DNA from: a virus
IMG/VR virus record: IMGVR_UViG_3300045482_000112
Location: 4,328 to 68,327 of that record
DNA length: 64,000 nucleotides
Direction: 5' to 3' (one strand)
Shown here piece by piece: positions 3,706 to 64,000 of this stretch; the stretch's first letter is position 1, and every line of letters starts with the position of its first letter. The position numbers were made by a program, and so were the translations under genes. The notes beneath the pieces are model-generated. The model ran no database searches. It had not been told where the DNA came from and worked only from the letters and a program-made list of their open reading frames with translations.

Positions 3706-4392
3706 ATGAGCAAACTACGTCTCTTACAGGCCGGACTGGTGGTCTACATCACTATCCTCATCACCTCCTTCCTGCATGTACTTCACGCTTTCCTGGCCTA
3801 CTCTGACAAGACCATTCAGCTCGGCAGTCTATCCATTCCAGGATGGTGGAGCGGACTGGGAGTGGCTATAGGTCTGGACCTGGCCATCATCTACTTCTCC
3901 TTCGTCTCGGTATTCCTGCAGACCAATGAAAAGGATGCCCAGGGCAAAACCATTCAGTCCCCCGGAGCCCTGGCGGCCCGCTACGGGGCTACCTGGGCCA
4001 TGCTGCTGGTCTGGTTTGCCGTGGTCTACTCCATGGTCTGGCAGCACCTGCAGGCCGGGGAGTGGGTGCCCGCCTTCATTGGGTTCATCCTCTCCCTGTT
4101 TGTCCCCCTGACCTCCCTGCGGGTAGGCCAGGTGCTGGGGGAAATTGCCAAGCTACCCGAGACCGAGACCCGGCCCCAGGAGTACCTGCCCCTGACCTCC
4201 CTGGCCCGAATTATCGACCGGGATGTCAAAGAAGTACTGGCCGCCATCCGCAACTACGAACAGGGTGAGGTGCGCCTGCTACGTCGGGGCAAAGACTGGC
4301 TGGTGCATAGCCAGGATGTGGAGGTGGTGCGTGCGGCAGTATTCGGTTATAACGAACGAAGCAGAACTGCGCAACTTACGCCTGCAACTTGA
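3706..4392 (+). CDS. multi-pass membrane protein (DUF2637-like) with possible C-terminal HTH
   Basis: About four hydrophobic helices, then LPLTSLARIIDRDVKEV HTH-like segment. Confidence 0.6.
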   Translation: MSKLRLLQAGLVVYITILITSFLHVLHAFLAYSDKTIQLGSLSIPGWWSGLGVAIGLDLAIIYFSFVSVFLQTNEKDAQGKTIQSPGALAARYGATWAMLLVWFAVVYSMVWQHLQAGEWVPAFIGFILSLFVPLTSLRVGQVLGEIAKLPETETRPQEYLPLTSLARIIDRDVKEVLAAIRNYEQGEVRLLRRGKDWLVHSQDVEVVRAAVFGYNERSRTAQLTPAT

Positions 4393-6583
4393 AGAAGCTC
4401 CCCTGATAGCCATCGACACCGAAACCACCGGACTGGACATCTACCAGCCCCACTTCCGGCTGGTAGGGGTCAGCCTGGCCCCCAGTGCCTACCAGGGCTA
4501 CTACCTGCCCTTAGACCACCTCAACTTCGCCGGACTCTCCTACCAGCCCCCTATGCTGTCCCAGGAGGCCGTAACCGAGTTGATGAGCTGGGTCTTTGCC
4601 CACAAGCCCACCGTCATGCACAACCGCTCCTACGACCGCAACGTACTGGCCGTGACCCTGGGCCTCGACCACTCCCTGACCCAGACCTCCCAGGACACCA
4701 AGCTGGCCGCCCACCTGCAGGACGAGAACGCTCCCAAGTCCCTGAAGGAACTGGCCAAGCGATGGCTGGGGGTCAGGGATGGAGGGGGAAGGTTCGCCGA
4801 CATAGCCAACACCGCCACCCAGTCCTGGGAAACCCTCTGGACCAGCGAAAAGGTGGGGGCCCTGAACAAGCATGGTCGTACCTACAAGAAGAACCGCTTT
4901 GTCCTGCAGCCGGACTGGCTCACCAAAGCGGAAGCCTTGTACCGCCAGACAGCCGGGGAAGCCTCCAGCCTGGCTTTCCTGTTTGACTACGTGTCCCACC
5001 TGTTCGCCCGCATGAAGTCCCGCACCCTGGTCGAATACTCCGGAGGTATGCCCCAGGACTTCCGGTACCTGCCAGTGAACCTGGCTGCCCATTACGCTGC
5101 CGATGACGCCATGAACACCTACGCCCTCTGGGTCACCCTGTACAACGGGCTTTCCCTGGAAGGACTAACCCCCCTGTACCAGAACCTGGAACTCCAGGTG
5201 GATGACATCATGACCCGCGCGGAACACCGGGGCATCCTGCTACATCCTGAAACCCTCCTCGAGGCCAAGGCCCTGCTGGAGGAACGCAGCATACAAGCTC
5301 GAGAAGAAGCCATGACCGCTCTCTCTCAGGCCCTGGACCCCCGCGACTTCATGGAGGGCAAACTCAACCCCCACACCCTGCTAAACTCCCCCAAACAACT
5401 GGCCTACCTGCTGTATGAGGTCCTGGGATACCCCATCCTGGAGAGAACCGAAACCCACCAGCCCTCCACCAGCCGGAGTGCCTTACAGGGGCTGCTCTCC
5501 CGCCGCAGCAAACCCCGCCTGCGCCCCGACCTCGAGGAACAAGGAGCCCAGTTCCTACAAACCAAACACAAACTGGATGCCATGAAGAAACTGGCCTCCA
5601 CCTATACTGACTCCCTCATCGAAAAAGCCGACCCCCAGTGCCGGGTACACCCCTCCTTCAACATCACCGGCACCGTCTCGGGGAGGATGTCCTCTAACAA
5701 CCCCAATTTTCAGAACATCCCCCGACTCTCCTCTGAAGAGACAGCCAACTCCCCCTGGCTGCACGACATCGACATTCGTAAAGCCTTCGTAGCCGACCCA
5801 GGCTATGTCTTAGTGGACGCCGACTTTGTTTCCATGGAGATGGTGGTCTGCGCCGCCCTCTCCCGAGACGACAACATGACCCGTCTACTCAACGAGGGGA
5901 GGGACCTGCACTGCCACACCGCCCGGTACGCCTTCAAAGTGGGGTTTGACCTGGATGACGCCACCTTCAAGAAGAAGTACAAGGACTACCGGCAAAAGGC
6001 CAAGGTGGTTAATTTCGCTATGATATACGGCGGTACGAGCTGGACCCTCCAAAAGAACTTTGGCTTCACCGAAGAGGAGGCCGAGGCCGCCGTCCAAGGC
6101 TACTTCGAGGGCTTTCCCGGGGTCAAGGTCTGGATGGACCAGGTGTACCAGGAACTCTCCCAGAAGGGCTACGTGGTCTACCCCGAGTACGGATACATCA
6201 AACGCATGGATACCCAGCCTCCCACCAACAAGTGGGATAAGGACGCCGCCAGGCAGTACCGGGCTGCTCTGCGTAGCTGTCAGAATGCCCTCATCCAGGG
6301 CTACAGCGCCTTCATCGTCAAAGATGCCATCGTCCAGCTTAACAAAGCCTTCCTGGAACAGACCCTGGAGTCCCGAGTGGCCTTCCAGGTCCACGATGAA
6401 ATAGGCGTACTGGCCCCCTACCGCGAAGCCGAACAGGTGGGAACCTTGATGTCCAGTATAATGACCAAATGGCTGGGGAAAGTCCTGTTGACCAGTGAGG
6501 TCGAATACAAACGTACCATGTCCAAAAACGAGCCCTCGCTGACCCTGGAGGAACTTCGCGCCCTGGCCCGGTCCTATGAATGA
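4331..6583 (+). CDS. polA: DNA polymerase family A with 3'-5' exonuclease
   Basis: ExoI DTETTG, ExoIII YAADD, TVSGRMSSNNPNFQNIP, motif A DADFVSME, motif B RQKAKVVNFAMIYG, motif C QVHDE; GGAGGT RBS before GTG 4331. Confidence 0.95.
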   Translation: MRQYSVITNEAELRNLRLQLEEAPLIAIDTETTGLDIYQPHFRLVGVSLAPSAYQGYYLPLDHLNFAGLSYQPPMLSQEAVTELMSWVFAHKPTVMHNRSYDRNVLAVTLGLDHSLTQTSQDTKLAAHLQDENAPKSLKELAKRWLGVRDGGGRFADIANTATQSWETLWTSEKVGALNKHGRTYKKNRFVLQPDWLTKAEALYRQTAGEASSLAFLFDYVSHLFARMKSRTLVEYSGGMPQDFRYLPVNLAAHYAADDAMNTYALWVTLYNGLSLEGLTPLYQNLELQVDDIMTRAEHRGILLHPETLLEAKALLEERSIQAREEAMTALSQALDPRDFMEGKLNPHTLLNSPKQLAYLLYEVLGYPILERTETHQPSTSRSALQGLLSRRSKPRLRPDLEEQGAQFLQTKHKLDAMKKLASTYTDSLIEKADPQCRVHPSFNITGTVSGRMSSNNPNFQNIPRLSSEETANSPWLHDIDIRKAFVADPGYVLVDADFVSMEMVVCAALSRDDNMTRLLNEGRDLHCHTARYAFKVGFDLDDATFKKKYKDYRQKAKVVNFAMIYGGTSWTLQKNFGFTEEEAEAAVQGYFEGFPGVKVWMDQVYQELSQKGYVVYPEYGYIKRMDTQPPTNKWDKDAARQYRAALRSCQNALIQGYSAFIVKDAIVQLNKAFLEQTLESRVAFQVHDEIGVLAPYREAEQVGTLMSSIMTKWLGKVLLTSEVEYKRTMSKNEPSLTLEELRALARSYE

Positions 6584-8096: not shown

Positions 8097-8606
8097 CTAC
8101 TCCACCAGGACCCCCTTGCGGGGCCTGAGACTAAGAAGCTGCGGATGCAGCACTGCCGGGTCCACAAATACCCGGCGAAACTCCTCTAAAGACATCCCCG
8201 CTTCCGGCCAGACCAGAAGACTGCCCCGGCCCATCCGCAGGATGTCGTAGTGCAGGTGGGCCGTCATCCCCGGCCACCCGCCAAAATGACTATTACCGCA
8301 GGTACCTACCGGCTTACCTGCTACCAGCCGGGCCCCCTGGGCACAGTCCACCCGGTCCAGATGAAAGAACCGGAAGACGTAGCCCAGGGCCTCGCTGGTG
8401 GCTACGACATAGTTCCCGTAGCGCCTACGGGCGCCGGTGTCCACCACCCGCAGGGCTACCGGGGCCACCACCGGACGGCCCAGGTCAGCATTGGGGGTAG
8501 CCCCAAAGTTAAGGTCGTATCCAGGATGCAACACCCCCCTGGCGTTGACCTCCCCGTGTCGGTGTCCGATATGGGTAGCTGACATGGGCAGTTGTATTGC
8601 ATCCAT
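8097..8606 (-). CDS. M23 endopeptidase (endolysin)
   Basis: HPGYD (HxxxD), YGNYV, FFHL, AHLHY. Confidence 0.85.
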   Translation of the reverse strand: MDAIQLPMSATHIGHRHGEVNARGVLHPGYDLNFGATPNADLGRPVVAPVALRVVDTGARRRYGNYVVATSEALGYVFRFFHLDRVDCAQGARLVAGKPVGTCGNSHFGGWPGMTAHLHYDILRMGRGSLLVWPEAGMSLEEFRRVFVDPAVLHPQLLSLRPRKGVLVE

Positions 8607-14534: not shown

Positions 14535-17303
14535 TTACCAGACTTCGTAAGTGAAGCTGACGATAGGCGCTACGGCATCGTTGTTGCCGCTAAGATGTTG
14601 GCGATGCAGTCTCACCCGGATAATGAAGGTACCTCCGCCCTGGTTGAGAACCCAGTGGTCCACAAACTGGAACATCACGTCTGCCCAGTTATTACCTAAG
14701 GAGTGGGTACCCACCATAATGGCCCCTATCGACCGTATCCCGGTGGGAGCATGAACCCAGCAGTCAAAGTCGTACACCCCTTCCCCGACGTGCTGGGCAC
14801 CAAAGCGACGAGAGTACAGCCGCACTCCGTTGCCCAGGCGCACCTCGCCTTCCTCCACCCGTTCTGCCCCGTTGTAGTTAGCCTGGGCCCAGTATTTAGC
14901 GTATTGGTTGTTGCCATTGGTCCAGATGGCAAAACCACCAATCTGTCCGCTGGTGGGGGTCAAAAAGGTGTTACTCTGATGAACCCGTACCTCGTCCATC
15001 ATCTCTACCGGACGGTTGAAGAAGTAGCGAGGGCGGTCGGTCTCGAAATGGAACCATTCCCCGTTACGGGGGCCCATCTCCCCCCAACCCCAGTCACTTC
15101 TCAGCCCCATGATGCCGTTGGTGTATATCCACAGGCGGTCAATTCCGTGCGTACTGAGGCGGTGACCCTTGTTCTGGTTGATGGAGAAGTGTGGGGTCTG
15201 GTTACTGTACCCCACTGCCCAGGTGGCGCCCTGGTGCCCCGAGGAGAACATAATGCTGGGGGTATCCCCAGCCCCGTCTACCCGGAACTCCGCCACTACC
15301 CCCCAGGAATGGTTTCCGTGTACGTTGCGGAAAAGAACTCCCGGCCCGGCATTGACACTACTGTTGGTGCGTGCAAAGTCTGCCAGTTGAGCATCCGAAC
15401 TGTGCACCGTCAGGGTGTGGCTGGGAGTGACGTTGACCCCAATACCCAACCGCACATTGTACACGTCGAAGATAGTGGAATACCTGGGGTTACCCACCCT
15501 ACCGTCCTGGACAAGCAGCCGCCCATCCGTGGAGAAGGCTAGGCCGATACCGCTCTGAGCATGTTCCACCATAGACGTGTTACCGTTGCGCAGGCTCAGA
15601 CCCACCGGCCAGCCCTGTTGGGCAGTACGGCTGGTAGACGAAATGTCCAGGGTGGTCTCCAGGTACCAGGAGTCGGTGTCCGGGGCGTAGCCGAACTCCC
15701 GTCCCCACTGCCGGGCTCCCTCATCCCAGGGGGCCATCAGGAAACGCCCGTCCACGAGGGTATGGGCCTGCATGGAGTGGGCACCATTGGCCACCAGCAG
15801 GTTGCGTACCGTCAGGTCTCCGCTAAAGGTCCAGGCCCCGGAGATGACCGAGTTGGCGTCCACTCTGGGGAAAACCGCCGATTCAAACCCGTCCAGCAGG
15901 TCGGCATTGAGGTTGGGTATATGGGTACTGCTGGCGACCACCAGGGGGGCAGTACCCGCAGGCGCGCTGCTGACCAACTGCAGGGCCTGGGCATTGCCCG
16001 ACAACACCGCCGCCCCCGCATTGAGGGTAACTCCCCCCGCATTGAAGCTCCCGCCCACCGTAAAGTTCAGGTTACGAACCACCAGGTTATCGAAGGTAGC
16101 TGCCCCTTGCACCAGGCTATTGAGCTGGCTTTGCAGGGCGTCCAGGTACGCCTGTACGTCGTAGCTGAAGCTGTTCTGGTTGGAGGGGAAGTTCAACGAG
16201 TCAAAGGGCTGGGCCAGCACCTCGCGGGACTGCACCCTTGGAGCCTGCACCCCGTCATGGCGGTGGGTGTCGAACAGCGCCTTGAAGGCCGACAGGTCCA
16301 CCCCATCCACCGTGACCCCCGGCGCTACCGTCAGGGGTTGGGCCAGGCTTCCCAGCACCTCCAGGTTCCCCCCTAACCGCAGAGACTGTGTAGCCAGGAG
16401 TCCAGCCCCTGCCTCCTCCAGCCGGGTTCCCTGATTGAACTCCAGGTTTCCGAAGAGACGGCCCCCGCCTCGCGGCAGGTAGGCCCCTTCCAGGGCGGGG
16501 GTCCCGCTGTGCATCAGGGCCAGCCGGGTAATACTGAAACTGGTGGTGGGGGAGTTGGTCCCCTCCAACCGAATCCGCAAACCCCGAGGAGGACCGCTGA
16601 AGGTCAACTCCGGTAGCAAAACACTACGCCCGTCCAGCCCCTGGGTAAAGGAGCCAACAACCGTGTACAGGCTCCCGTCGTAGGAAACCTCTACCTGAAT
16701 GCGGGTCAGGCCCTGGGGAATACCGTCAAAGGCCAGCAGCAAGCGGGCCGTAGCCGCCAGACTGGTGTCCAGTAGGGGAGCACTTCCCGAAACCGTGTAC
16801 TCTATCGGGTACACTTCACTCCCTGCAAAAGAGACTCCCCGCAGGTCAGGAGTAAAAGGATGGAGCCGAACCTCCCCTACCTCCGAGACTCCACCTCGAG
16901 TCAAGGCCACCGAACGAAGGGTGTCCCAGCCCGCATAGACCAGCGCATCGGCCAGGTCGAAGACCAGGTGGGGGCTGGGCCGGTGGTCCCGCACCATGAC
17001 CAGGGGCTTCTCCGCGCTCAGGTGCAGCGACCCTTCCACGTACAGGTCCCCGCCCACCCCGATGTCCCCCGGCTGCAGGGCGCTGTTGCCCCCCGCTGTA
17101 CGGAAAGAGGTGAAGGAAAGGGTACCGTCCAGAATGGACTGTAACACAAAGTCCATCCGCTTGAAGTTGAAATTGAGCGTGTTCTGAGGGTCTACCTGCA
17201 GGGGGCCGGTGTAGGCTGCCCCAGGACGTACATCCTCCACCGCAATGATGGGGTCGTCGTGGTAAAACAGGTTCAGGCCAAACAGCGGAGTTTTCCGCAT
17301 CAT
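14535..17303 (-). CDS. tail fibre / receptor-binding protein
   Basis: 922 aa; YLPRGGG, VDGVDLS, HRHDG, NLNADLLDG fibre motifs; Gly/Asn/Trp-rich C-terminus. Confidence 0.8.
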   Translation of the reverse strand: MMRKTPLFGLNLFYHDDPIIAVEDVRPGAAYTGPLQVDPQNTLNFNFKRMDFVLQSILDGTLSFTSFRTAGGNSALQPGDIGVGGDLYVEGSLHLSAEKPLVMVRDHRPSPHLVFDLADALVYAGWDTLRSVALTRGGVSEVGEVRLHPFTPDLRGVSFAGSEVYPIEYTVSGSAPLLDTSLAATARLLLAFDGIPQGLTRIQVEVSYDGSLYTVVGSFTQGLDGRSVLLPELTFSGPPRGLRIRLEGTNSPTTSFSITRLALMHSGTPALEGAYLPRGGGRLFGNLEFNQGTRLEEAGAGLLATQSLRLGGNLEVLGSLAQPLTVAPGVTVDGVDLSAFKALFDTHRHDGVQAPRVQSREVLAQPFDSLNFPSNQNSFSYDVQAYLDALQSQLNSLVQGAATFDNLVVRNLNFTVGGSFNAGGVTLNAGAAVLSGNAQALQLVSSAPAGTAPLVVASSTHIPNLNADLLDGFESAVFPRVDANSVISGAWTFSGDLTVRNLLVANGAHSMQAHTLVDGRFLMAPWDEGARQWGREFGYAPDTDSWYLETTLDISSTSRTAQQGWPVGLSLRNGNTSMVEHAQSGIGLAFSTDGRLLVQDGRVGNPRYSTIFDVYNVRLGIGVNVTPSHTLTVHSSDAQLADFARTNSSVNAGPGVLFRNVHGNHSWGVVAEFRVDGAGDTPSIMFSSGHQGATWAVGYSNQTPHFSINQNKGHRLSTHGIDRLWIYTNGIMGLRSDWGWGEMGPRNGEWFHFETDRPRYFFNRPVEMMDEVRVHQSNTFLTPTSGQIGGFAIWTNGNNQYAKYWAQANYNGAERVEEGEVRLGNGVRLYSRRFGAQHVGEGVYDFDCWVHAPTGIRSIGAIMVGTHSLGNNWADVMFQFVDHWVLNQGGGTFIIRVRLHRQHLSGNNDAVAPIVSFTYEVW

Positions 17304-38229: not shown

Positions 38230-38349
38230 ATGCCCAAAAAGAAGTACTACTGGGTCGTGTCCGCGCGGTTTACCGCGCGGTACGACACATATAACCAGGC
38301 CTTAGCAGCATGGGCCAGCCTCAGGCTGGCCCATATAGAGTACCGATAG
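38230..38349 (+). CDS. 39-aa hypothetical protein
   Basis: AAGGA RBS; MPKKKYYWVVSARF...; followed by terminator. Confidence 0.55.
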   Translation: MPKKKYYWVVSARFTARYDTYNQALAAWASLRLAHIEYR

Positions 38350-38353
38350 TTAT

Positions 38354-38381
38354 GCCCCCAGCCGTAAGGCTGGGGGCTTTT
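38354..38381 (+). terminator. intrinsic terminator
   Basis: GCCCCCAGCC-GTAA-GGCTGGGGGC-TTTT. Confidence 0.85.
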
Positions 38382-38399
38382 CCTTTGGGCCAGGGCAGG

Positions 38400-39000
38400 A
38401 GACCCACTCCCACCGCCCACCCCCCAGTTCAGCGAGGCTTACGCCTCGCCTCACTTCCACCCACCGACAGCAAAGCCCCCCGGCATGGCCGAGGCTCTCT
38501 ACGCTCGCCAGGAAAGACAAAGGCAACACTACGTGTCCCACCGCCCACCCCCCACTCCCACCCCTAGAGAACCTCACTCACCCGCCAACGACCCTCGGGC
38601 CAACAACACCCCAAGGACCCACCGCCCGCTCGGCTACGCCGCAGCCTCAAGGGCAGCGCGACTAGAGTCCCACCTCCCGCTCGGTCCCAAAGGGGCCTCA
38701 AGGGCAGCGCGACTAGAGTCCCGCCGCCCACCCCCGGCCCTGGCCTCGCACGCTCGGCCAGGCTTGCCCACCCTTACGACCCCCCACACCACAACCTGGC
38801 CGCCCAAAGAAAAGCTAGGCTGCGGCCACAGGCCGCACTCGACTGTCCTCACCCCCACCCCCACGCCTCGCACCCTACGCTGAGGGACAAAGACCAGTGG
38901 AAAGTTCTACCCGACCAAGGCCCCACCGCCCGTTCAGTTACTACGTAGCCTCAAGGGGGGCAGAACACGTAGTGTCCCACCGCCCACCCCCGCCTCCCAC
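38400..39000. repeat. C-rich non-coding repeat tract
   Basis: CCCACCGCCC(ACCCC) repeated about six times; exact 28-bp repeat at 38644 and 38695. Confidence 0.75.
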
Positions 39001-39110: not shown

Positions 39111-39310
39111 CTGGGTCGTAGCCCCAGGGCTTTGATGCGCGACTAGCACGGTCCGTCTGCCGTGTCAAGGCCCCCTCCCCGCTACCTGGGGGCCTCCTCC
39201 CCGCTAGCGCGGGTCCCCTCCCCCAGCGGGTCCCCTCCTTGACACGGTTCGCTTCGCCAGCCGTCCCGTGCTGGGCAGTCGCCAAAGCCCTGGGTCTACT
39301 ACTGACCCAG
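39111..39310. promoter_or_regulatory. 200-nt fold-back hairpin upstream of RNAP gene
   Basis: Nested inverted repeats CTGGGTC/GACCCAG, CCCAGGGCTTTG/CAAAGCCCTGGG, GCGACT/AGTCGC, AGCACGG/CCGTGCT, CCGTGTCAAGG/CCTTGACACGG. Confidence 0.75.
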
Positions 39311-39323
39311 GCAAGGAGTTGTT

Positions 39324-41477
39324 ATGCTAAGCATAGAGAAATTCAAGGAAACAATTAAGGAAAAGAAGGAGCACCTCACAGAAGCCCGTAAAGTATACAC
39401 GGGCTCGTTTTCAGAGAGAGGATGGGAGAGGGACTCGTTCGCTCTCCTTTTCAATAATGACGTAAAAATCGAGGACGTAGTGGTAGGGAAGGAGCCTGCC
39501 ACTGTTTTAGACAACATGGAATTCGTGGGGGGCAACTCCCACCGGGTGGTGTACATGGACCTGAAAGGGTTCATGGCCAAATACCCCATCCTTGGAAAAT
39601 GGTGGGGGGAGAAAGGAGACTCCCACCTCCTGGCCAGTATGTTTTTAAGGCCAGGAAAGTTATTCCAGGGGGAAGGGTATATTTCCCTGCCCCCAAAAAA
39701 CAATAAGGAGGTCAATGATGGCCTCCTGATGACCCTGAGCCGTAAAGAATGGGGTCGTTTGGTAGAGGGGTTTGAACTGCCCCTCGAGACCGCCCTAGTT
39801 CAGGGGACGGTGTTTAGTCCCCAGGACGGAATTGTTGGAAAGGGCACCATCCGGGTGGTACTGCCCGGTGAGAAGCCCCAAACTTTTGTGGGGAGCTGGA
39901 AGTCCCTGCCCGAGGAGGTAGGGTCGCTGCTATTTTCCAGTATTTCGGTGCTGGAAACGGACGCCACCTATCGACCCAGGGCGTCTATCAATTTACAGGA
40001 GTACACCTACTGGGCCAGGGCAAGGGGGTACTCCTTGTCTCCATGGGTCTTGGAAGAGGCCCTGGCCGGGGTCAATAAAATTATGGTGGGGGAAAAGTCC
40101 TCCATCTACAACGGGTGGGGGTACCTCTCCCGTCTAGGGATACCCGCCCCCGACTCCATGCTGAAGGAGATGGAGGAGGGCCTGAAGGGAGGGCTATACA
40201 AGGCCCTCACTCGCTGGGAGCTGTCCCGTGCGGCAGGGTGGAGGGGTAAGGTCTCCGGGTCCGAGAAGTTGGCGGACCGGGAGATTCTGATGCCCAAAAG
40301 CTCAGATACCGTGATAGGGGACACGGTATACGCCACCAGAAACCCCGCCCTACCCATCAATGGGTGGGTGAGATACACGGTAGTGGGCCACGTAGGAGGC
40401 AATGTGGCCTATGTAAGTGGGGCGAGCGATAGCAAGTTCGCCCAAGTTTTAGGGGGAGACTTCGACGGGGATGACCTGGTGGTGCTGTACAGGAACCCCG
40501 TGCAGGGCGAATACGAGCCCGTGGTCAACCTCCAGCAGTGGAAGGCCGAGGGAAGGAAGTACGGCACCTCGGCAGAGGACCGGTTGGCCCGCTGGAACAA
40601 GGAGCGGGAAACCAATATCGGGCAGTGGGACATCCTAGCCCGATACTGTGCCGACTTCAATATGCTGAGCGAGGAGCTGGTCCTGCAGTTCTCCAAACTC
40701 ATACAGTTCAGCATCTCTCTGAAGAAGAGAGTGGGAGAACTGGAAGTGCCCAGAGTGGTATACACGGCCATGAAGATGGTGGGTCCCATGAAGGAGCTAT
40801 CGCCCACCTACTTCCTCCGCACCTTCAGGGATAGCACCAAGGAGTCCCGCGAGGCCGGAATGGTCACCCACGCAGAGGCCCTGGCCGAGCTGATGCCCAT
40901 TGTCGAGGCAGTCTCTGATGGGCTCGAGGCAGTCTCGGTGGGGAAAACCCGCTGGGACTTTTCGAGGGCCAGAGAAGTGGCCTTGAAAGTGAGGGACAAC
41001 GACGCCCTCAAGGTGGTCGCAAAAGAGTACCTTGAGAAGTTTGTGGCCCTCAGCACCGCCAAATTCCAGGCTGCAGAGGCCGAGGATGGGGATGTACGGA
41101 GCATCCTCAATCGGGAGCTCAGGTACCTACTGCAAGTAGAAATGCCCGAGTTCATGCTGGGCCTGGAGGAGGAACAGGCCCTGGAGTTCTCCGCCGAATT
41201 GGTCAAGGTGTTCCCCAACAGCATCTTCTGGGTGTTCGCGGTACACCCGGAATTCCTCAGAAGGGTGGCCATGGCTACCTTCGCTGGAGAGAAGGCCATG
41301 TTGGTGGGGGAGCATAGCTTGCAGGAGGGGGATACAGTTATCATCCCCCCCTACACCCGAGAAGTTGAGGTTGGAGGGCAGATGATGAAGCTCTCCAACG
41401 GAGTAATGCTCTGGGAGGAGGTGAAAACCGCCACCGTGGTGAAGGTGTATGCCAAGTCGGTGGTCCTGAAATTCTAA
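39324..41477 (+). CDS. single-subunit double-psi beta-barrel RNA polymerase (YonO/QDE-1/P23-45 gp64-like)
   Basis: LGGDFDGDDL catalytic loop, upstream YATRNPAL and IVGKG; 717 aa; AAGGAG RBS. Confidence 0.8.
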   Translation: MLSIEKFKETIKEKKEHLTEARKVYTGSFSERGWERDSFALLFNNDVKIEDVVVGKEPATVLDNMEFVGGNSHRVVYMDLKGFMAKYPILGKWWGEKGDSHLLASMFLRPGKLFQGEGYISLPPKNNKEVNDGLLMTLSRKEWGRLVEGFELPLETALVQGTVFSPQDGIVGKGTIRVVLPGEKPQTFVGSWKSLPEEVGSLLFSSISVLETDATYRPRASINLQEYTYWARARGYSLSPWVLEEALAGVNKIMVGEKSSIYNGWGYLSRLGIPAPDSMLKEMEEGLKGGLYKALTRWELSRAAGWRGKVSGSEKLADREILMPKSSDTVIGDTVYATRNPALPINGWVRYTVVGHVGGNVAYVSGASDSKFAQVLGGDFDGDDLVVLYRNPVQGEYEPVVNLQQWKAEGRKYGTSAEDRLARWNKERETNIGQWDILARYCADFNMLSEELVLQFSKLIQFSISLKKRVGELEVPRVVYTAMKMVGPMKELSPTYFLRTFRDSTKESREAGMVTHAEALAELMPIVEAVSDGLEAVSVGKTRWDFSRAREVALKVRDNDALKVVAKEYLEKFVALSTAKFQAAEAEDGDVRSILNRELRYLLQVEMPEFMLGLEEEQALEFSAELVKVFPNSIFWVFAVHPEFLRRVAMATFAGEKAMLVGEHSLQEGDTVIIPPYTREVEVGGQMMKLSNGVMLWEEVKTATVVKVYAKSVVLKF

Positions 41478-41578
41478 GAACCCCGGAGTAGAGGCACCTC
41501 CACAGGCTTTGCCGCGTGGGGGATGCCCACCTATTATAAAAAGACCGTCACCTCGCTCGGTTACTTCGGCACCTAAGA

Positions 41579-41604
41579 GGGCCGCTTCGCGGCCCGAATC
41601 GGTG
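41579..41604 (+). repeat. hairpin module A copy 1
   Basis: GGGCCGC-TTC-GCGGCCC-GAATCGGTG. Confidence 0.85.
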
Positions 41605-41654
41605 AGGACAAAAGAGGGAAAAGAAACAGCCCTCTGGCGTCCGAAGGAGGAGTT

Positions 41655-41972
41655 ATGGAATTAAAGAACTTAACCCCCCATGCCCTGGTGGTTGCAGGGC
41701 GAACCATCGAGCCCTCGGGGGTCGTGGCAAGAGTTAGTGTGTCGTTCGAGGATGCCGGGTCCGTGGATGGCATCCCCGTGGTGTCTCAGGTATTCGGGCA
41801 GGTGGAGGGCCTGCCCGAGCCCCAGGAGGGCGTGGCCTTCATCGTCAGCGGTATGGTTCTAGCGACGATAAAGGGCCGGGCGGACGTGTTCGCCCCGGAC
41901 ACCGGCCCCACCGCCATCAGGAACGAGAAGGGCCACATCATCGGGGTGGTCCGTCTCGTGGCAGCGGGGTAG
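41655..41972 (+). CDS. conserved viral hypothetical protein (NLTPH type)
   Basis: NLTPH, PSG..ARV, GLPEP..G...IVS, RADVFAPD; strong RBS. Confidence 0.8.
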   Translation: MELKNLTPHALVVAGRTIEPSGVVARVSVSFEDAGSVDGIPVVSQVFGQVEGLPEPQEGVAFIVSGMVLATIKGRADVFAPDTGPTAIRNEKGHIIGVVRLVAAG

Positions 41973-41977
41973 TTACC

Positions 41978-42235
41978 ATGGTCCCCACCCTGGCCTCCCT
42001 GGGGCGGGCGGTGTTTGTCTGCCGCACGGCCCAGGGATGGGATGTTAGCCCTCATCAGCGGGTATCCCGTAGCAGGCTGCAGGCATTTACTGCCAGCGGC
42101 CAGCTCCGGCTGCTGGATACCCCCACAATAGCCTTCGTCCAGTCGGGGGAGAAGTGGGTGCCCGCAGGCATCTACGACTCCCCCGATGGCCCCATCGCGC
42201 TGGAGCTGCGGCAGGTAGCCGTGGCTTCGGCGTAG
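41978..42235 (+). CDS. hypothetical protein
   Basis: In-operon 85-aa ORF. Confidence 0.6.
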   Translation: MVPTLASLGRAVFVCRTAQGWDVSPHQRVSRSRLQAFTASGQLRLLDTPTIAFVQSGEKWVPAGIYDSPDGPIALELRQVAVASA

Positions 42236-42253
42236 GTAGTAGTAGGAGGACCC

Positions 42254-42403
42254 ATGTATACCAATATAGAAATAGAAGAGCAAGGGGACGGCTGGGTAGT
42301 TTCCCAGGCGTCCAACGGCATTATAATCGGGGTCTACTCCACCTGGGAACAAGCCTGGGCAGTTGCCACCGCAATCGATGCCGAGCTCGGCGTCCCCCAG
42401 TAG
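42254..42403 (+). CDS. 49-aa hypothetical protein (DUF2188-like)
   Basis: AGGAGG RBS; GDGWVV...YSTWEQAWAVA. Confidence 0.65.
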   Translation: MYTNIEIEEQGDGWVVSQASNGIIIGVYSTWEQAWAVATAIDAELGVPQ

Positions 42404-42410
42404 CCCCCAG

Positions 42411-42442
42411 CCCCAGGGTCCAAAAGACTCTGGGGTATTTTT
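42411..42442 (+). terminator. intrinsic terminator
   Basis: CCCCAGGGTC-CAAAA-GACTCTGGGG then TATTTTT. Confidence 0.7.
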
Positions 42443-42629
42443 CTGTACCCCGGCTTGACCGGTGGTACTCCTGGCAAAAGCCACAGGGCCGCATTCGCGG
42501 GGGCTATAACCCCGGCCCTGGCGATGAAGCTGAGCTTTATCGCCCTCGAGGTTCCACAAGAACCGAGAGTGATGGCTTTCTAAACAACAAACCAAGGTTT
42601 TGGTTGTGGGGTACAACTAAAACCTCGAC

Positions 42630-42746
42630 ATGCCTCTGTGAGGGCCTACAAGGGGCCTAGAAGCGCTTACCCCCCCGTCTCCAGTCTTACCCCTACAACC
42701 GGGGGTGGAGGAGCTTCTAGGTACCCTACAGAGGCTTATAGGGGGT
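42630..42746 (+). repeat. ~117-bp long-hairpin repeat copy 1
   Basis: ATGCCTCTGTGAGG...CTAGAAG...CTCCAGT..CTTACCCCTA...CTTCTAGG...CTACAGAG..TTATAGGGGGT shared with 44076. Confidence 0.8.
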
Positions 42747-42808
42747 GTTTACCCTCGAGGTGTCGGCTCGTCCCCAGAGTTCCCTCGAGGGTACCCCGAC
42801 ACTCTGCA

Positions 42809-42834
42809 GGGCCGCTTCGCGGCCCGAACCGGTG
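42809..42834 (+). repeat. hairpin module A copy 2
   Basis: GGGCCGC-TTC-GCGGCCC-GAACCGGTG directly before RBS. Confidence 0.85.
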
Positions 42835-42848
42835 ATAAGGAGGACAGA

Positions 42849-43355
42849 ATGTTATACGTGGTTTTCAACACCGACAAGCCCACTCCCTTCGTAAATATCG
42901 GGGGGGTCCAGTTCGGCCCCCTGGGTACGGGAAAGTACCTGGGGAACGACTGGAGCTACCTGGTTATCCCCGAGGTAGCAGGGCGCTTGCTTTCCGTGCA
43001 GGTGCCTTCCAGGGCCACTGCCAGGGATGCCAGCTTCCACGGCCAGTTCGGGGATGGCGTATATGCCGTCCTCCTGGCCCGGTACAACGGGAGACGGTCC
43101 CCAACCCTGTTCCTCACCGATGAGGCCGACCATGAGCCCATCGGAACCGGAGGGGCCAAGTGCGTCTGGCAGTACGGGGATGGCCACGGTATGAAGTTCG
43201 GGGCCCTCCTCCGGCTGGACCCCGTAGCTCAGGTAAAACTGAGCGTAACGGGGCACCACGACCACGGCTGGGCCCGTCACATCTTCAAATTTCAGGATGG
43301 GGTAGTCTCCCGCATCCCCAGGAATGGGGGCTGGAAGACTCCCCCAGTAATTTAG
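42849..43355 (+). CDS. hypothetical protein
   Basis: AAGGAGG RBS before ATG 42849. Confidence 0.75.
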   Translation: MLYVVFNTDKPTPFVNIGGVQFGPLGTGKYLGNDWSYLVIPEVAGRLLSVQVPSRATARDASFHGQFGDGVYAVLLARYNGRRSPTLFLTDEADHEPIGTGGAKCVWQYGDGHGMKFGALLRLDPVAQVKLSVTGHHDHGWARHIFKFQDGVVSRIPRNGGWKTPPVI

Positions 43356-43363
43356 GGAGAGTT

Positions 43364-43672
43364 ATGCGAATAGACATAAAGGCCACCCTGGCCGCCCTGA
43401 TGGGGATGCCGGGGGAGTTAGTCACTAGGACAAACCCCGCCAGTAGCGCGGTGGGGCCGTCCACCGAGTTTGCCGTCCGGGACCAGGACGGGGAGGACAG
43501 CCTGGAACTCCTCCTCGACTACCTGGTCATCTCCGTATCCTGGGGGTCCATGAGTTTCTGGGACCGCTGGGAGGGGGAGCCCGGAGAACCCCTGCGGTAC
43601 ACGGGAACCGTAGGGGACGCCCACAGAAGACTACCCGCATGGGTGGTCTTCGAGGAAGGGGGTGCGGGTTGA
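43364..43672 (+). CDS. hypothetical protein
   Basis: GGGAG RBS, ATG 43364. Confidence 0.7.
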   Translation: MRIDIKATLAALMGMPGELVTRTNPASSAVGPSTEFAVRDQDGEDSLELLLDYLVISVSWGSMSFWDRWEGEPGEPLRYTGTVGDAHRRLPAWVVFEEGGAG

Positions 43673-43861
43673 TGCCCTCATAGGGTGGTTTGTCGGGTGG
43701 TACTCGAGGCGAGAGTCCTCAGGATGGCTCCCGCTAGGGGGGCTATACCCCGGCCACACCGTGGGGGGATGACCTGCCTCAAAACTTTCCTAGGCAGGTA
43801 CCGCCAGGTAGACGCCATGGGGGTGCTGAAGAGGAGCGAAGCGACTGTTCCCCACCTGAGA

Positions 43862-43887
43862 GGGCCGCGAAGCGGTCCGAACCGGTG
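43862..43887 (+). repeat. hairpin module A copy 3 (GAA loop)
   Basis: GGGCCGC-GAA-GCGGTCC-GAACCGGTG. Confidence 0.8.
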
Positions 43888-44075
43888 ATGAGAAAGAGCA
43901 GAAGGAGCGCGGAGAAGCGCTCCGGGTAGGGACAGCAAAGGTAAACCCAATCCTGCACCTGAGAAAGGAGGTCACCCCATCTATAAAGTGTGCTCCCAGC
44001 CGCAATTCCTATCCAATGAAGGGGGTAGAATCCCCCCAAATCAGGAAATGCGTCCAGGGCATACTAAAATGCCAT

Positions 44076-44193
44076 ATGCCTCTGTGAGGCTCTGTAGGGG
44101 GTCTAGAAGGCTGACCCCCCCCCTCTCCAGTACTTACCCCTAGACCAGGGGGTCGAGGCGCTTCTAGGGGGTCTACAGAGCCTTATAGGGGGT
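44076..44193 (+). repeat. ~118-bp long-hairpin repeat copy 2
   Basis: GGCTCTGTAG/CTACAGAGCC and CTAGAAG/CTTCTAG stems. Confidence 0.8.
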
Positions 44194-44230
44194 AATGACG
44201 GGGGGCGTAGCGACCCGTCGTTGCCCTTGA

Positions 44231-44254
44231 GGTTCCGAAGGAACCGAACGGGTG
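44231..44254 (+). repeat. hairpin module A copy 4 (compensatory stem)
   Basis: GGTTCC-GAA-GGAACC-GAACGGGTG. Confidence 0.7.
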
Positions 44255-44723
44255 TTTAGGGGTAGCATGTCGGGAAGGTTGGCCGAATGCCCCCCACCCC
44301 AGAGAAGAGGGGGTGACCTCCGGGTTAAAAACTTTCCTGGGCATGTACCGCCGTATAGACGCCATGGGGACCCTACAGACGCCGAGCTAAGGCCCCATCC
44401 AGAGCCCGGAGGCCCCCCCGCCGCAGGGCTCGGGATGCCGGGGGGACTAAAAACTTTACGGAGCGTGTACCGCCCGGCAGGCCACAGGGGGTAACTCCCC
44501 TCAGCCGTGTTGCAGAAAGGAGGCATGGTATACTGGGCAGTACCAGCCCATTTAGTCTGACTCCATAGCCCCCCTCCCATGACAAGTCGCTTCGCTCCTT
44601 GTCTGGGCGGGAGGGGGGTTGGGGGGTGGGAAATGTAACGACTCACCCTAGAGATTCCTTGGGCCGAGTGAGGAATATGCGGTGCAGGACGTAGGGGAGG
44701 CATGTACCGGTGCCACGCAACAT

Positions 44724-44752
44724 CGACCCCTAACGACCCCTAACGACCCCTA
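44724..44752. repeat. 3x10-bp tandem repeat
   Basis: CGACCCCTAA-CGACCCCTAA-CGACCCCTA. Confidence 0.85.
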
Positions 44753-45191
44753 TCCACCCTTTCTCCCCCTTCCCGACCCTCCCCCCTTATCCCCCTCACC
44801 CGTCACTAACCTCGTCCAGGACGAGGTTTCTCTCCTACGGAGGAGATGTCCACAGGACTATACTCAGTACAATTCCAGTTAGGTAAACGGCTACACCACA
44901 GTCTTTTTACTTAACTGAGCATGTACCGCCAGTCCTGCTACCGACATTTCCTCCCTCACCATTCCTACCCTGTGTCTGGGACACACTTCCCCCTCGTCTT
45001 GAAGGGAGCTTCTGCTATTCTCCTTTCTCTTCTAGTACAAAGGACTGGGAGGGAAAAGGTGTATCCAGAGAGAGAAAGGGTTAACTCCATGTCCTTCACC
45101 CTAATACATGTCTTTTACTAGTAGGCATGTACGGGGTCATTGTCTTTTACCCTTAACTCCACGTCCTCTACCAGTAAAGAACAAGGAGAAA

Positions 45192-45278
45192 GGTAAGGAA
45201 CGTAGAGAGATAGTAGAAAGGACTGGGAGATAAAGGGTAAGGGACGTAGAGAGACAGTAGAAAGGACTGGGAGATAAA
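45192..45278. repeat. 2x44-bp purine-rich tandem repeat
   Basis: GGTAAGGRACGTAGAGAGAYAGTAGAAAGGACTGGGAGATAAA twice; AAAGGACTGGGAG also at 45039. Confidence 0.85.
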
Positions 45279-45402
45279 CAATAGAGAACAGAGAGGAGAT
45301 TAGGATTTTTGCTACCCTAGCCCAAGTACCCCCCTGTGTACAATGAGAGAAGCCCCGCGATGTGCCCGCATCCGGGGCTTTGCCATTCCTTGAAAGGAGT
45401 GT

Positions 45403-45963
45403 ATGAAGCTCGGGAACACCCCAAACAAAACCGTGGTTGTGTACCGCCTGTACCCCACAAAGGAGCAAGAAAGTACCCTGCTGCTCACACTAGACCTAAC
45501 GTGGAAGCTATACAACATCGCCCTGACGGAACGGAAGGAAGCCTGGAAACGACACAAGAAGAACCTATCCGCATACGACCAGATGTATGCCTTACCCTAC
45601 CTCAAGAAGACAAGACCCGAGTTCCAAAAGGTCTACGCTCAGGTGCTCCAGCAAACCCTTATCCAGGTGGAACAAACGTTCAACAGATTCTTCGCAAAAG
45701 TCCGCCTGAAAGAGAAGGCAACCTATCCCCAGGTTGTAGAAAGAGGGGAGTGGACTAGCTTCACCTTTCCGCAAGTCGTGGTGGGTACAAAATGGCAAGG
45801 TCCAGGTAAGTTACGAGAAAACGGTACCGTCAAAATTCCCAAGATAGGAGACGTTCGGATAGACGTGCACCGTCCCCTTGAAGGGACACCTAAAGCCCTC
45901 ACCATCAGTTACCAGAACGAGCAATGGTACGCACTGTACTCCTGTGACGTACCACCAACCTGA
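45403..45963 (+). CDS. TnpB N-terminal (WED/REC) protein lacking RuvC
   Basis: YRLYPTKEQ, LYNIAL.ER, VYAQVLQQ, FNRFF, SFTFPQ, KIPKIG, HRPLEG..K..TI..WY; ends before RuvC-I. Confidence 0.85.
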   Translation: MKLGNTPNKTVVVYRLYPTKEQESTLLLTLDLTWKLYNIALTERKEAWKRHKKNLSAYDQMYALPYLKKTRPEFQKVYAQVLQQTLIQVEQTFNRFFAKVRLKEKATYPQVVERGEWTSFTFPQVVVGTKWQGPGKLRENGTVKIPKIGDVRIDVHRPLEGTPKALTISYQNEQWYALYSCDVPPT

Positions 45964-45982
45964 GCCCACAATAACCACAGCA

Positions 45983-46022
45983 ACCCACCCAGAAAGACAC
46001 TCCATGTCCGACTGGGTGGGTT
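45983..46022 (+). terminator. hairpin after truncated tnpB
   Basis: ACCCACCCAG...CTGGGTGGGT then TCTCTT. Confidence 0.5.
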
Positions 46023-46029
46023 CTCTTGT

Positions 46030-46114
46030 GCCGCTTCGCGGCTAGACCGGTGATGAAGGGAAGCGTAGCGACCCGTCATTACCTATGAGGGCCGCTTCGC
46101 GGCCCGAACCGGTG
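46030..46114 (+). repeat. hairpin module A copies 5 and 6 joined by hairpin B
   Basis: GCCGC-TTC-GCGGC-TAGACC-GGTGATGAAGGG..GCGTAGCGA..CCCGTCATTACC-TATGA-GGGCCGC-TTC-GCGGCCC-GAACCGGTG. Confidence 0.85.
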
Positions 46115-46145
46115 GGGAGTAAACAACCCACCCAAGGAGGCAGTC

Positions 46146-46370
46146 ATGTTTGAAGTCTACGGCACCATTACCTACTACACCAACACGTTCGACAACCATA
46201 CCCGTCAAAAGTACATCATCCAGAAGTTTTCCTCCAGGACGAATGCCGAACGGTACCGCCGTCTCATGGACGATACCAACCCGGACACTGACCTGGCCAT
46301 CCGCTCCGTACCCAACTTCCCCCGCCGCCCGGTAGTAAGACGCATCCGGGTAGCATCCGCCGCCCACTAG
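46146..46370 (+). CDS. hypothetical protein
   Basis: AAGGAGG RBS. Confidence 0.7.
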   Translation: MFEVYGTITYYTNTFDNHTRQKYIIQKFSSRTNAERYRRLMDDTNPDTDLAIRSVPNFPRRPVVRRIRVASAAH

Positions 46371-46440
46371 CCACGGAAGCAAGTACACACTTCCACCACC
46401 CCACAGCCCAGGCGCAGGGTTATGCGTCGTAGGAGTTTCT

Positions 46441-63025: not shown

Positions 63026-64000
63026 CTATTCCCGCTGCCCCTTGGCCAACCTCACCGGAGAGGCCGCCTGCAGTACCTCCGTCAGGTCTTCCAGGTTCAG
63101 GCGCGAGTATCGGTCCGTCATGTGAGTGGTGGTATGCCCCAGGACAGCCTGAGTGACGGTACGGGCCACTCCCTGCCTGTCCAGGGCGGTTACGAACCCC
63201 CTGCGAAAAGCGTGGGGGGTCATATGCTCCACCTCTGCAACCCTGCACAGCCGGGTGATGAGCTGCAACAGAGAACTCCGTCCCATAGGCTGTACCTCCA
63301 CCCCGGTACCCGCCAGAAAAACCCGCTCGCTGTCGCTGGGGGGACGTTCATGCCGTATGTATTGATACACTTTACTCTTCACCTCCCTTCCTACCGGCAC
63401 GTAGCGGTCCTTCCCGCCCTTGGAGGCCCGGATATGCACCACGTTGGGCTGTTCCAGGTCTTTAATGGTAAGGCCACAGAGGTCGGAAGCCCTCATACCG
63501 GTTGCGTACAGTAGGGTCAGGATAGCCTGGTCCCGCAAGGGCTGGCGGGTCTGTCCTGCGGCCCTCAGTAAGCGGTTAAAGTCGGTAGCCCGTACCACCG
63601 GGAGGGTCTTCTCCGGTACCCTGGGGAAAAATTCCCGGCAGAACTGCTGGGTAGCGAAGAGGTTCTCAGGAACTATCCTCTGGCGGTAACACCAGATGGC
63701 GAAAGTCCTGACTGGGCGGAGCCGTACATGCACCCCTCCGGCGGTCAGTGCCTCCACTACGTACCCATTCTCCGCCTTCATGATGTTGGGCACATTGCCT
63801 TTGGGTTGTTCCGCAGTCCAGGCTGCAAACTTGAGCAGGTTGCGCTCCGTAAGGCAGTCTGTCGTGGTCTGCCGCAATACTTCCCGCATGTACCACTCCA
63901 GCTTCTGCAATGCAAAGGTGTACACACGCTGGGTATTGGGCGAGAGATTCTTGCGCTTGGCTTGTAAGAACTCTGCAATGACCGAGGCCAACTTCTCCAT
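63026..64000 (-). CDS. tyrosine recombinase/integrase (start at window edge)
   Basis: LRDQAIL.LLYATGMRASD, KGGKDR, TPHAFRR, LGH, TDRY; N-terminal core-binding domain. Confidence 0.92.
   Translation of the reverse strand: MEKLASVIAEFLQAKRKNLSPNTQRVYTFALQKLEWYMREVLRQTTTDCLTERNLLKFAAWTAEQPKGNVPNIMKAENGYVVEALTAGGVHVRLRPVRTFAIWCYRQRIVPENLFATQQFCREFFPRVPEKTLPVVRATDFNRLLRAAGQTRQPLRDQAILTLLYATGMRASDLCGLTIKDLEQPNVVHIRASKGGKDRYVPVGREVKSKVYQYIRHERPPSDSERVFLAGTGVEVQPMGRSSLLQLITRLCRVAEVEHMTPHAFRRGFVTALDRQGVARTVTQAVLGHTTTHMTDRYSRLNLEDLTEVLQAASPVRLAKGQRE

Follow-up and report, generated by a model that had tools for sequence, protein, structure and literature searches.

Triloop hairpin modules beside the gene of a phage two-barrel RNA polymerase as candidate N4-like promoters

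The closest described counterparts of the elements discussed here are the promoters of the virion RNA polymerase (RNAP) of phage N4, which the available text of two sources describes as GC-rich heptamers in which a C:G pair closes a G-R-A loop on the template strand (PMC4496689, PMC13037366). Their stems are given as 5 to 7 bp long, with the heptamer centered at -11, conserved inner bases, and free outer bases, and the 5' G and 3' A of the loop, together with the closing C:G pair, are described as required for extrusion at physiological supercoiling (PMC4496689). The N4 enzyme binds hairpins with the heptamer GCGGAGC or a GAA loop, the former with nanomolar affinity (PMC13037366), and GCGNAGC is known as a "mini-hairpin" of extraordinary stability that depends on its C-G closing pair (PMC13037366, PMC3201870). 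Here we describe six triloop-hairpin modules (m1 to m6) that follow the gene of a predicted two-barrel RNAP in a 64-kb stretch of viral DNA (the window; positions 4,328 to 68,327 of the 68,327-base IMG/VR record IMGVR_UViG_3300045482_000112, which is classed as a provirus with an estimated completeness of 64%). The modules are real, and their interpretation as promoters is plausible and is strengthened by comparison with related phages. On the sequence evidence, we see about an even chance that they are cis-acting DNA signals, most likely N4-like hairpin promoters for the phage's own two-barrel RNAP.

How the single-subunit two-barrel RNAPs of phages and their kin (phiFa gp44, YonO, the virion enzymes of crAss-like phages, and relatives of QDE-1, the RNAi polymerase of eukaryotes) find promoters is largely an open question. 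According to the available text on phi14:2, its gp66 and QDE-1 transcribe single-stranded but not double-stranded DNA in vitro, and no common promoter motif was found for gp66 (bioRxiv 10.1101/2020.03.07.982082). The study of YonO left the promoter sequence undefined (PMC5467207). Within this wider group, RNAP promoters have been mapped experimentally in P23-45 alone, and those of its nonvirion RNAP gp64 are described as "GC-rich" in the available text (Chaban et al. 2024, PMC10770324). Beyond N4-like phages, our literature search, which covered few subscription journals, found no publication in which a two-barrel RNAP or a Thermus phage is credited with a hairpin promoter.

The 717-aa protein encoded at 39324 to 41477 on the + strand is, as modeled, a single-subunit two-barrel RNAP of the QDE-1/gp64 type. 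This identity is drawn from its similarity to gp44 of Thermus phage phiFa, annotated "RNA polymerase" (36% identity, 87% coverage, E = 3e-78 in tblastn), from the motif GGDxDGDD, which is invariant across seven RNAP homologues (GGDFDGDD here, with the invariant residues D379, D381, and D383), and from the fold of an AlphaFold (AF2) model with a pLDDT of 82.8. In Foldseek, the model matched QDE-1 (E = 1.8e-13), P74-26 gp62 (E = 1.7e-11; TM 0.54 on the target), and the gp64 RNAP (E = 1e-10), followed by plant RDR2, P23-45 gp96, and phi14:2 gp66, and it has the fold of two double-psi beta-barrels with a DxDGD metal site that typifies the QDE-1/gp64 clade. These results agree with the preliminary description of this DNA, which had placed a two-barrel RNAP gene beside the modules. 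No Pfam or PHROG family matched the open reading frame (ORF), and a PDB sequence search with an RNAP profile gave a chance match only (E = 0.34). Because BLASTP against P23-45 gp64 aligns the catalytic region alone (23% identity over 168 aa, E = 0.06), the protein is assigned by sequence to the phiFa branch and not to the close relatives of gp64. The T7/N4-like RNAP family PF00940 was not found in the window record or in the three related genomes introduced below, a weak negative because the positive control matched nowhere either.

The six modules share the + strand, and their loop centers are at 41587, 42817, 43870, 44238, 46036, and 46097. Their stems are 7, 7, 7 (with one G.T pair), 6, 5, and 7 bp long and enclose 3-nt loops, as in promoters of the N4 type. 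Module m1 (41570 to 41605) consists of CACC, 5 nt, a hairpin at 41579 to 41595 with the loop TTC, GAATC, and GGTGA, and its tail is GAATCGGTGA. The hairpin of m2 (42809 to 42825, within 42800 to 42835) has the same stem and TTC loop and is followed by GAACCGGTGA; the same tail follows m3 (43853 to 43888), whose hairpin at 43862 to 43878 has the loop GAA. A GAA loop is also found in m4 (44223 to 44255), where a GGTTCC/GGAACC stem at 44231 to 44245 precedes GAACGGGTG. The weakest copy, m5 (46026 to 46053), combines the shortest hairpin (46030 to 46042, loop TTC, followed by TAGACCGGTGA) with a weaker flank than the other copies, and it stands in tandem with m6 (46080 to 46115) at a spacing of 61 nt. 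The hairpin of m6 (46089 to 46105, loop TTC, followed by GAACCGGTGG) is identical to that of m2. Four copies (m1, m2, m3, and m6) are near-identical over about 30 nt, with CACCT-N-AGAG, a 7-bp stem, a 3-nt loop, and GAAYCGGTG in that order. The loop is closed by a C-G pair in all six modules. The parallel with N4 drawn in the preliminary description holds, as far as the available N4 text goes, and is closer than was stated there, as the template strand of m1, m2, m5, and m6 reads GCGAAGC and thus presents a G-(A/G)-A loop.

We built a covariance model on m1, m2, m3, and m6 and searched both strands of the 64 kb. The seeds scored 63.4, 59.9, 58.8, and 62.9 bits, respectively, and the best further + strand matches were m4 (18.1 bits, E = 0.005) and m5 (14.1 bits, E = 0.09), with the next one after m5 reaching 13.9 bits at 63227. 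Matches on the - strand coincide with the module sites and are due to the palindrome, and the model found no credible copy outside 41.5 to 46.2 kb or on the - strand anywhere in the window. All six modules that the preliminary description had reported, in a single orientation and near the RNAP gene, are therefore present, and there are no others. Its further observation of a swapped stem in one copy and an inverted loop in two, with the flanks retained, is likewise accounted for by m4, which has both changes, and by m3, the other inverted-loop copy. Relative to m1, three pairs of the m4 stem are doubly compensated, so that the stem is retained through compensating changes and structure is conserved, as had been proposed. 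An initial pattern test that allowed two mismatches was weak (5 matches against 2.49 expected, with 5 reached in 12 of 100 shuffles), and the case for the modules rests on the four exact copies and the covariance search. The tails read GAACCGGTG, which occurs exactly at three sites in the window, all three of them modules, and with at most one mismatch at 30 sites, five of which are modules.

Two degenerate look-alikes were seen by eye between m1 and m2, one at 42486 to 42504 (a GGGCCGC...GCGG stem with a 4-nt loop) and one at 42548 to 42575 (an m4-like GGTTC...GAACC hairpin followed by GAGAGTGATGG); neither is among the covariance matches at E values up to 10. Heptamers of the GCGNAGC type are mildly more frequent in the window than in shuffles (48 versus 31 expected), and 8 of the 12 GCGAAGC sites lie within 39.2 to 46.1 kb. 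Sense-strand heptamers followed by GAC (repeat family D5) occur 25 to 30 nt upstream of m3 (GCGAAGC, 43836 to 43842), m4 (GCGTAGC, 44205 to 44211), and m6 (GCGTAGC, 46063 to 46069) and are absent ahead of m1 and m2.

Comparison was possible with three further genomes that carry this RNAP type, namely, the complete genome of phiFa, a phage cultured on Thermus thermophilus HB27, and two uncultured genomes, G001 (81% complete) and G002 (63% complete). Closer homologues, at 53 to 36% identity, were also found in a protein search. A single-protein search of viral contigs with the 717-aa RNAP returned no close relatives. A seven-sequence RNAP profile found two distant loci in viral contigs and two in metagenome contigs, of which one is the same record, and none among the matches listed for genome contigs. 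A family of triloop hairpins with G+C stems is present in all four genomes with this RNAP type, far above its frequency in dinucleotide shuffles. The enriched loops were TTC in the window (4 versus 0.67 expected), TCC and GGA in phiFa (15 versus 0.6 and 8 versus 0.7, with terminal-repeat copies counted twice), GGA and TCC in G001 (12 versus 0.07 and 5 versus 0.13), and TCC in G002 (5 versus 0.03). The phiFa and G001 counts include hits in coding sequence, three of them in the tape measure gene, which are probably due to chance or codon usage. A hairpin of the form AGGCGC-GGA-GCGCCT lies in the homologous ribonucleotide reductase (RNR) coding sequence of both P23-45 (8453 to 8467) and G001 (41434 to 41448), which shows that such hairpins can arise by coincidence within genes.

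As the preliminary description had anticipated for phages lacking the polymerase, three Thermus phages without this RNAP show no such hairpin family. No loop type was enriched or repeated in P23-45, phiKo, P23-77, or phiYS40, the last of which, with a G+C content of 32%, is a poor control. Loops of the GNA or TNC type accounted for 5 of 28 hairpins in P23-45 (1 to 50 kb), 0 of 8 in phiKo, and 3 of 12 in P23-77, and phiYS40 had no hairpins.

The intergenic and gene-boundary hairpins of the three relatives make up a set of 19 modules, or 25 together with the six of the window. Pairs were counted on loop-anchored sequences, as MAFFT misplaced the inverted-loop copies. Pairs 3 to 6 from the loop center are Watson-Crick in 99 of 100 cells, with two to four pair types per position, a figure with some circularity, since a perfect stem was a condition in the search for the relatives' modules. 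Closing-pair identity and loop type were not selection criteria, and all 25 modules have a C-G pair next to the loop. The sense-strand loop is TCC in 17 and GGA in 2 of the relatives' modules, and over the whole set it has the form T-Y-C in 21 of 25, the rest being the complement. On the template strand, the core of the phiFa and G001 modules reads GCGGAGC.

Covariation is also apparent between modules at corresponding sites. Ahead of orthologous genes, for which protein identity is 41.5% and 26%, the phiFa and G001 modules differ from each other in outer pairs with compensating changes, and a third pair of modules, which follows the conserved end of the RNR gene, shows compensated stem changes as well. 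In these orthologous modules the inner CGC-loop-GCG is constant, and the outer stem bases vary but still pair. A G-rich box follows at a fixed distance from the loop center regardless of stem length (5 to 8 bp), with GG falling at +15/+16 in most TCC modules of phiFa (6 of 7) and most modules of G001 (4 of 5) and at +14/+15 in most of those in the window (4 of 6). At five modules, no gene has its ribosome site in this box.

The placement of the modules is shared as well. The distance from the RNAP stop codon to the first module is 102 nt in the window, 442 nt in phiFa, about 360 nt in G001, and 144 nt in G002. In phiFa, the RNAP gene is followed by a 12-pair intrinsic terminator (4688 to 4716), tandem modules at 5111 and 5163, and gene 43. 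The preliminary description had noted three copies just ahead of a ribosome site and an ATG, and these are m1, m2, and m6, whose stems end 59, 23, and 40 nt before the ATGs at 41655, 42849, and 46146. The three small genes behind m1 end at a canonical intrinsic terminator found by the terminator scan (11-pair stem at 42410 to 42436, 5-nt loop, T-rich tail; 42410 to 42446, + strand), and m2 is found 373 nt further on. A terminator-like hairpin (9-bp stem and 19-nt loop at 45984 to 46020, tail TTCTCTTGT; 45984 to 46029, + strand) was read from the sequence between a TnpB fragment and m5/m6 and is outside the reach of the scan, whose loop limit is 8 nt. Both m2 and the m5/m6 tandem are thus placed between a terminator and the next genes. 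The block that starts at ATG 46146 runs to the end of the window, encodes an AAA+ ATPase, a vWA-metallopeptidase, DnaB, and a PD-(D/E)XK nuclease, and is syntenic with the phiFa replication genes.

These features suggest a scheme in which the host RNAP would transcribe an early block ending with the polymerase gene, and negative supercoiling and high temperature would then extrude the short G+C inverted repeats as hairpins. The template-strand arm would present the very stable GCGAAGC mini-hairpin, with its G-A-A loop and C:G closure, to the phage RNAP, a member of a clade that prefers single-stranded templates. RNA synthesis would begin at a constant distance beyond the hairpin, within or beside the conserved CGGTG box, which lies about 13 to 17 nt from the loop center. 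In this scheme, m1 and m2 would drive small groups of early genes, and tandem m5/m6 would drive the long block of replication genes. The modules, their retention through compensating changes, their placement, and their association with this polymerase family in four genomes are observed, and from them we infer the hairpin extrusion, the polymerase binding, and the start site. Taken together, the GCGAAGC/GCGGAGC core, the use of such hairpins by N4, the preference of the clade for single strands, and the T7-like layout make the promoter reading the best supported. A more general proposal is held more tentatively, at slightly less than an even chance: extruded GCG(A/G)AGC mini-hairpins on the template strand would be where phage RNAPs of the QDE-1/gp64 clade begin transcription, a principle that would have arisen independently of the T7-like polymerase of N4, and the strand that carries the G-R-A loop may set the direction of transcription.

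The hairpin-promoter reading of the preliminary description has therefore gained from the type of the RNAP, the stem compensation, the likeness to N4, and the relatives, and it has lost some ground to the loops of m3 and m4 and to P23-45. Several observations weigh against it. In m3 and m4, the G-A-A loop is on the nontemplate strand, and no ORF lies behind either module, the 1.7 kb around them being devoid of convincing ORFs. If the N4 model applied strictly, these two copies would be inactive or act leftward, or else the strand of the loop would be irrelevant. P23-45 has no enriched triloop hairpin family within 1 to 50 kb (its gp64 being only marginally alignable), no repeated promoter motif emerged from its intergenic regions and CGTAG-containing sites, and the word "hairpin" does not occur in the available text of the paper on its promoters (PMC10770324). 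The control set is small, at four genomes, and the pairing figure carries the circularity noted above. Among imperfect outer pairs, m3 and three of the relatives' modules have G.T on the sense strand versus one A.C pair, and sense-strand G.T pairs fit folding of the sense strand or of RNA. Several phiFa modules lie in 30-nt gaps between a stop codon and a ribosome site. A sigma-70-like site (TTGCCG-17 nt-TATTAT, 41509 to 41537) lies upstream of m1, which could therefore be a leader element; such sites are about as frequent as expected (3 found versus 2.9). The phiFa hairpin at 16358 to 16382, with a GCGC-TCC-GCGC core in an 11-pair stem followed by TTTT, is located 26 nt past the stop codon of gene 25 and looks like an ordinary terminator; it lies within the annotated start of gene 24, which may be misplaced.

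The most serious alternative, which we consider unlikely but deserving of real weight, is that the modules act as RNA, as intercistronic or 5'-leader stem-loops that shield the message downstream or upstream from exonucleases, direct processing, or bind a phage or host factor that tunes translation of the following gene. The constant spacing of phiFa modules 16813, 18176, and 31084 between a stop codon and a ribosome site would suit such a role, as would the G.T pairs just mentioned and the purine-rich or A-rich single-stranded tract ahead of the hairpin in the relatives. Such tracts occur at known endonuclease sites. An outer CACC/GGTG helix could lengthen the fold in five of the six window copies, the RNA hairpins are stable at 70°C in the energy model, and the spacers of about 400 nt between terminator and module could hold promoters anywhere. 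DNA and RNA folds could not be told apart by the energy models, in which both are stable to 70 to 80°C. The restriction of the loop to sense-strand T-Y-C or its complement, always with C-G closure, argues against a role in RNA, as U-Y-C triloops have no known special stability in RNA, whereas the complementary G-R-A loop has it in DNA, according to the available text on mini-hairpins. Loop inversion in m3 and m4 alters the RNA loop completely, yet the flanks are kept, and the terminators of these phages use loops of 4 to 5 nt. An RNA-level function also does not predict a position linked to the RNAP gene in four of four genomes, and no Rfam family matched the modules in a search of 37 to 47 kb at E values up to 1.

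A role in priming is improbable. The modules would then be ssi-type single-strand initiation sites or other replication signals, used on unwound DNA by an archaeo-eukaryotic-type primase near an origin in the island at 43.7 to 45.4 kb. Similar mini-hairpins are described at the complementary-strand origin of G4 and in RSF1010 ssiA, which is read by the primase RepB' and whose CCGAAGG equals the core of m4, in the available text of PMC13037366; both phiFa and P23-45 have a gene for a primase small subunit of the eukaryotic type; and the noncoding island contains tandem repeats (at 44724 and 45189), a G+C dip to 0.54, and a cluster of GCGWAGC heptamers, to which the concentration of GCGAAGC sites noted above belongs. 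The modules of the relatives are nevertheless spread over 15 to 25 kb, directly ahead of the ribosome sites of single genes and oriented with those genes, an arrangement for which priming offers no grounds, P23-45 has the primase without the hairpin family, and m1 and m2 lie among small early genes outside the island.

We consider it still less probable that the modules stop, pause, or attenuate transcription by the phage or host RNAP, a reading on which the phage enzyme would need no U tract. Sense-strand G+C hairpins between genes might be read in this way, as might the phiFa hairpin after gene 25 and several of the relatives' modules on the antisense strand at phiFa 5177 to 5163 and at 12450 to 12436 and 12140 to 12126 in L007, which pass the terminator scan because the upstream A-rich tract becomes a T-rich tail. 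The window modules do not pass: none of the six has a T run beside it on either strand, and none was listed by the scan. The identified terminators of this phage, which include a further one from the scan at 38354 to 38377 with a GTAA loop, combine loops of 4 to 5 nt with a T run, as opposed to the triloops of the modules, and those of P23-45 use tetraloops. Moreover, modules follow canonical terminators and directly precede genes, including the 18-kb block, so that termination there would silence essential genes, and termination would leave the conserved distance of the downstream box unexplained.

Least of all do we favor a selfish or neutral REP/MITE-like element, a relic of an IS200/IS605 end, or a dimeric-protein site spread by local duplication, a highly improbable set of explanations to which the segmental duplication of about 400 nt that contains m2 and m4 (42452 to 42850 and 43687 to 44260), the 74 nt shared at 74% identity by m3 and m6, the TnpB fragment ending 67 nt before m5, and the degenerate look-alikes lend some appeal, but which fit poorly with the single orientation, the absence of copies in the 54 kb outside the island, the lack of the hairpin at all 57 IMG/VR loci with an exact 16-mer of the module, the mere two matches of a 23-mer, both in unrelated genomes, among 185,579 species genomes, the analogous modules in front of orthologous genes despite 26 to 41% protein identity, and the m4 stem, in which sequence but not pairing has changed, something that a dimer reading the sequence would not tolerate. 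Three specific identities were rejected, namely, an intrinsic terminator because the T run is absent, a duplex operator because the stem of m4 differs in sequence and keeps its pairing, and an IS605 end because there are no copies elsewhere.

Several other features of the region were recorded. The first gene behind m1 (41655 to 41972, + strand, 105 aa) matches phrog_21731, a PHROG without assigned function, and the first genes behind m2 (42849 to 43355, + strand, 168 aa) and m6 (46146 to 46370, + strand, 74 aa) had no match in the family search. The ORF at 45403 to 45963 (186 aa) is the N-terminal part of TnpB/IS605 OrfB (HTH_OrfB_IS605, E = 6.8e-10; phrog_506 transposase, E = 1e-28, profile positions 8 to 175 of 403), and no nuclease part follows it. 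The segmental duplication around m2 and m4 also contains the D19 repeat and both copies of a self-complementary element of about 117 nt, which could be a structured RNA. The copies (42630 to 42746 and 44076 to 44193, 71 to 84% identity) lie about 40 to 60 nt upstream of m2 and m4; the Rfam search of 37 to 47 kb matched nothing on this element and gave a subthreshold Thr_leader only, at 38306 to 38386. A second same-strand repeat family (D2/D4, of the type ACTTTCCTrGGCAkGTACCGCC) is found only in the noncoding island, with no gene behind it, at 43784 to 43816, 44331 to 44363, 44453 to 44485, and 44909 to 44941, with weaker copies seen by eye near 44690 and 45110. The tandem repeats of the island are a 10-mer in three copies (44724 to 44763) and a 44-mer in two (45189 to 45276), in the part of the window with the lowest G+C content (44 to 46 kb), and this iteron-like arrangement may mark a candidate replication origin. 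On the + strand of the same island, TGGTATACT at 44526 to 44534 resembles an extended -10 element. The stretch from 38397 to 39000, which precedes the RNAP gene, holds the repeat families D3, D6, and D9, with three 51-nt units that have conserved flanks and a variable hairpin-forming center and with GTCCCACCGCCCACCCCC occurring four times; these repeats are candidate signals for the expression of the RNAP gene itself.

The window has a siphovirus-like layout, with the structural genes, including that of a 2,636-aa tape measure protein, on the - strand and a + strand gene block that begins near 38 kb. By tblastn, the N terminus of the tape measure protein matches the phiFa tape measure only and not the RNAP part of P23-45 gp96. 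Near-identical public matches to 39300 to 46400 came from two groundwater metagenome DNA runs only, one of which may be where this DNA comes from, and no RNA run was listed among the public read sets matching this region. The groundwater runs yielded a long contig that is identical to the window and five short ones, of which four are identical, with zero variants.

If the modules are indeed promoters, two unrelated polymerase folds would have converged on one structured single-strand signal, the preference of this RNAP clade for single-stranded templates would be explained, and researchers would gain a small polymerase with its promoter, probably thermostable, as a system to study. Since phiFa, which has been published with T. 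thermophilus HB27 and carries the N4-type GCGGAGC core, grows on this host, the hairpin-promoter idea is directly testable.

The layout of the locus resembles that of T7. In T7, the RNAP gene closes the early unit that the host enzyme transcribes, and the class II promoters phi1.1A and phi1.1B stand immediately after it; here, too, the polymerase gene is followed by the first, partly tandem modules and then by genes. The T7 polymerase is unrelated to the enzyme of the window, and T7 promoters are read as a 23-bp duplex sequence without a hairpin. With the G4 origin and ssiA, as far as the available text describes them, the modules share a GNA/GNNA mini-hairpin that marks the start of RNA synthesis on single-stranded DNA, and the core of m4 is that of ssiA. 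Those sites number one or two per replicon, lie at origins, and are read by primases, whereas the modules are many, oriented with genes, and located ahead of ribosome sites. Like the gp64 promoters of P23-45 in the available text, the modules are G+C rich and lie in the same gene region (PMC10770324). Unlike the phage of the window, P23-45 has a virion RNAP fused to its tape measure protein, and its gp64 aligns with the 717-aa RNAP around the catalytic motif only.

The modules may work like N4 promoters, but they are not members of the N4 system, as the one polymerase found is a two-barrel enzyme and PF00940 was not found in the four records, where the control matched nowhere either. Their presumed polymerase is of the QDE-1/gp64 two-barrel type, unrelated to the T7-like enzyme of N4, and no packaging of it into virions is known; two of the six window copies have their loop on the opposite strand; and the downstream box lies about 13 to 17 nt from the loop center, compared with 11 nt in the available N4 text. 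Nonetheless, like the N4 promoters P1 to P3 that are read by gp50, as they are described in that text, the modules consist of an inverted repeat of 5 to 7 bp around a 3-nt loop with C:G closure, and in four of the six window copies the template strand reads G-C-G-(A/G)-A-G-C. As in N4, the inner stem bases are conserved and the outer ones are free but paired, the elements are oriented with their genes and stand at the head of early units, and a conserved position follows at a fixed distance downstream of the loop.

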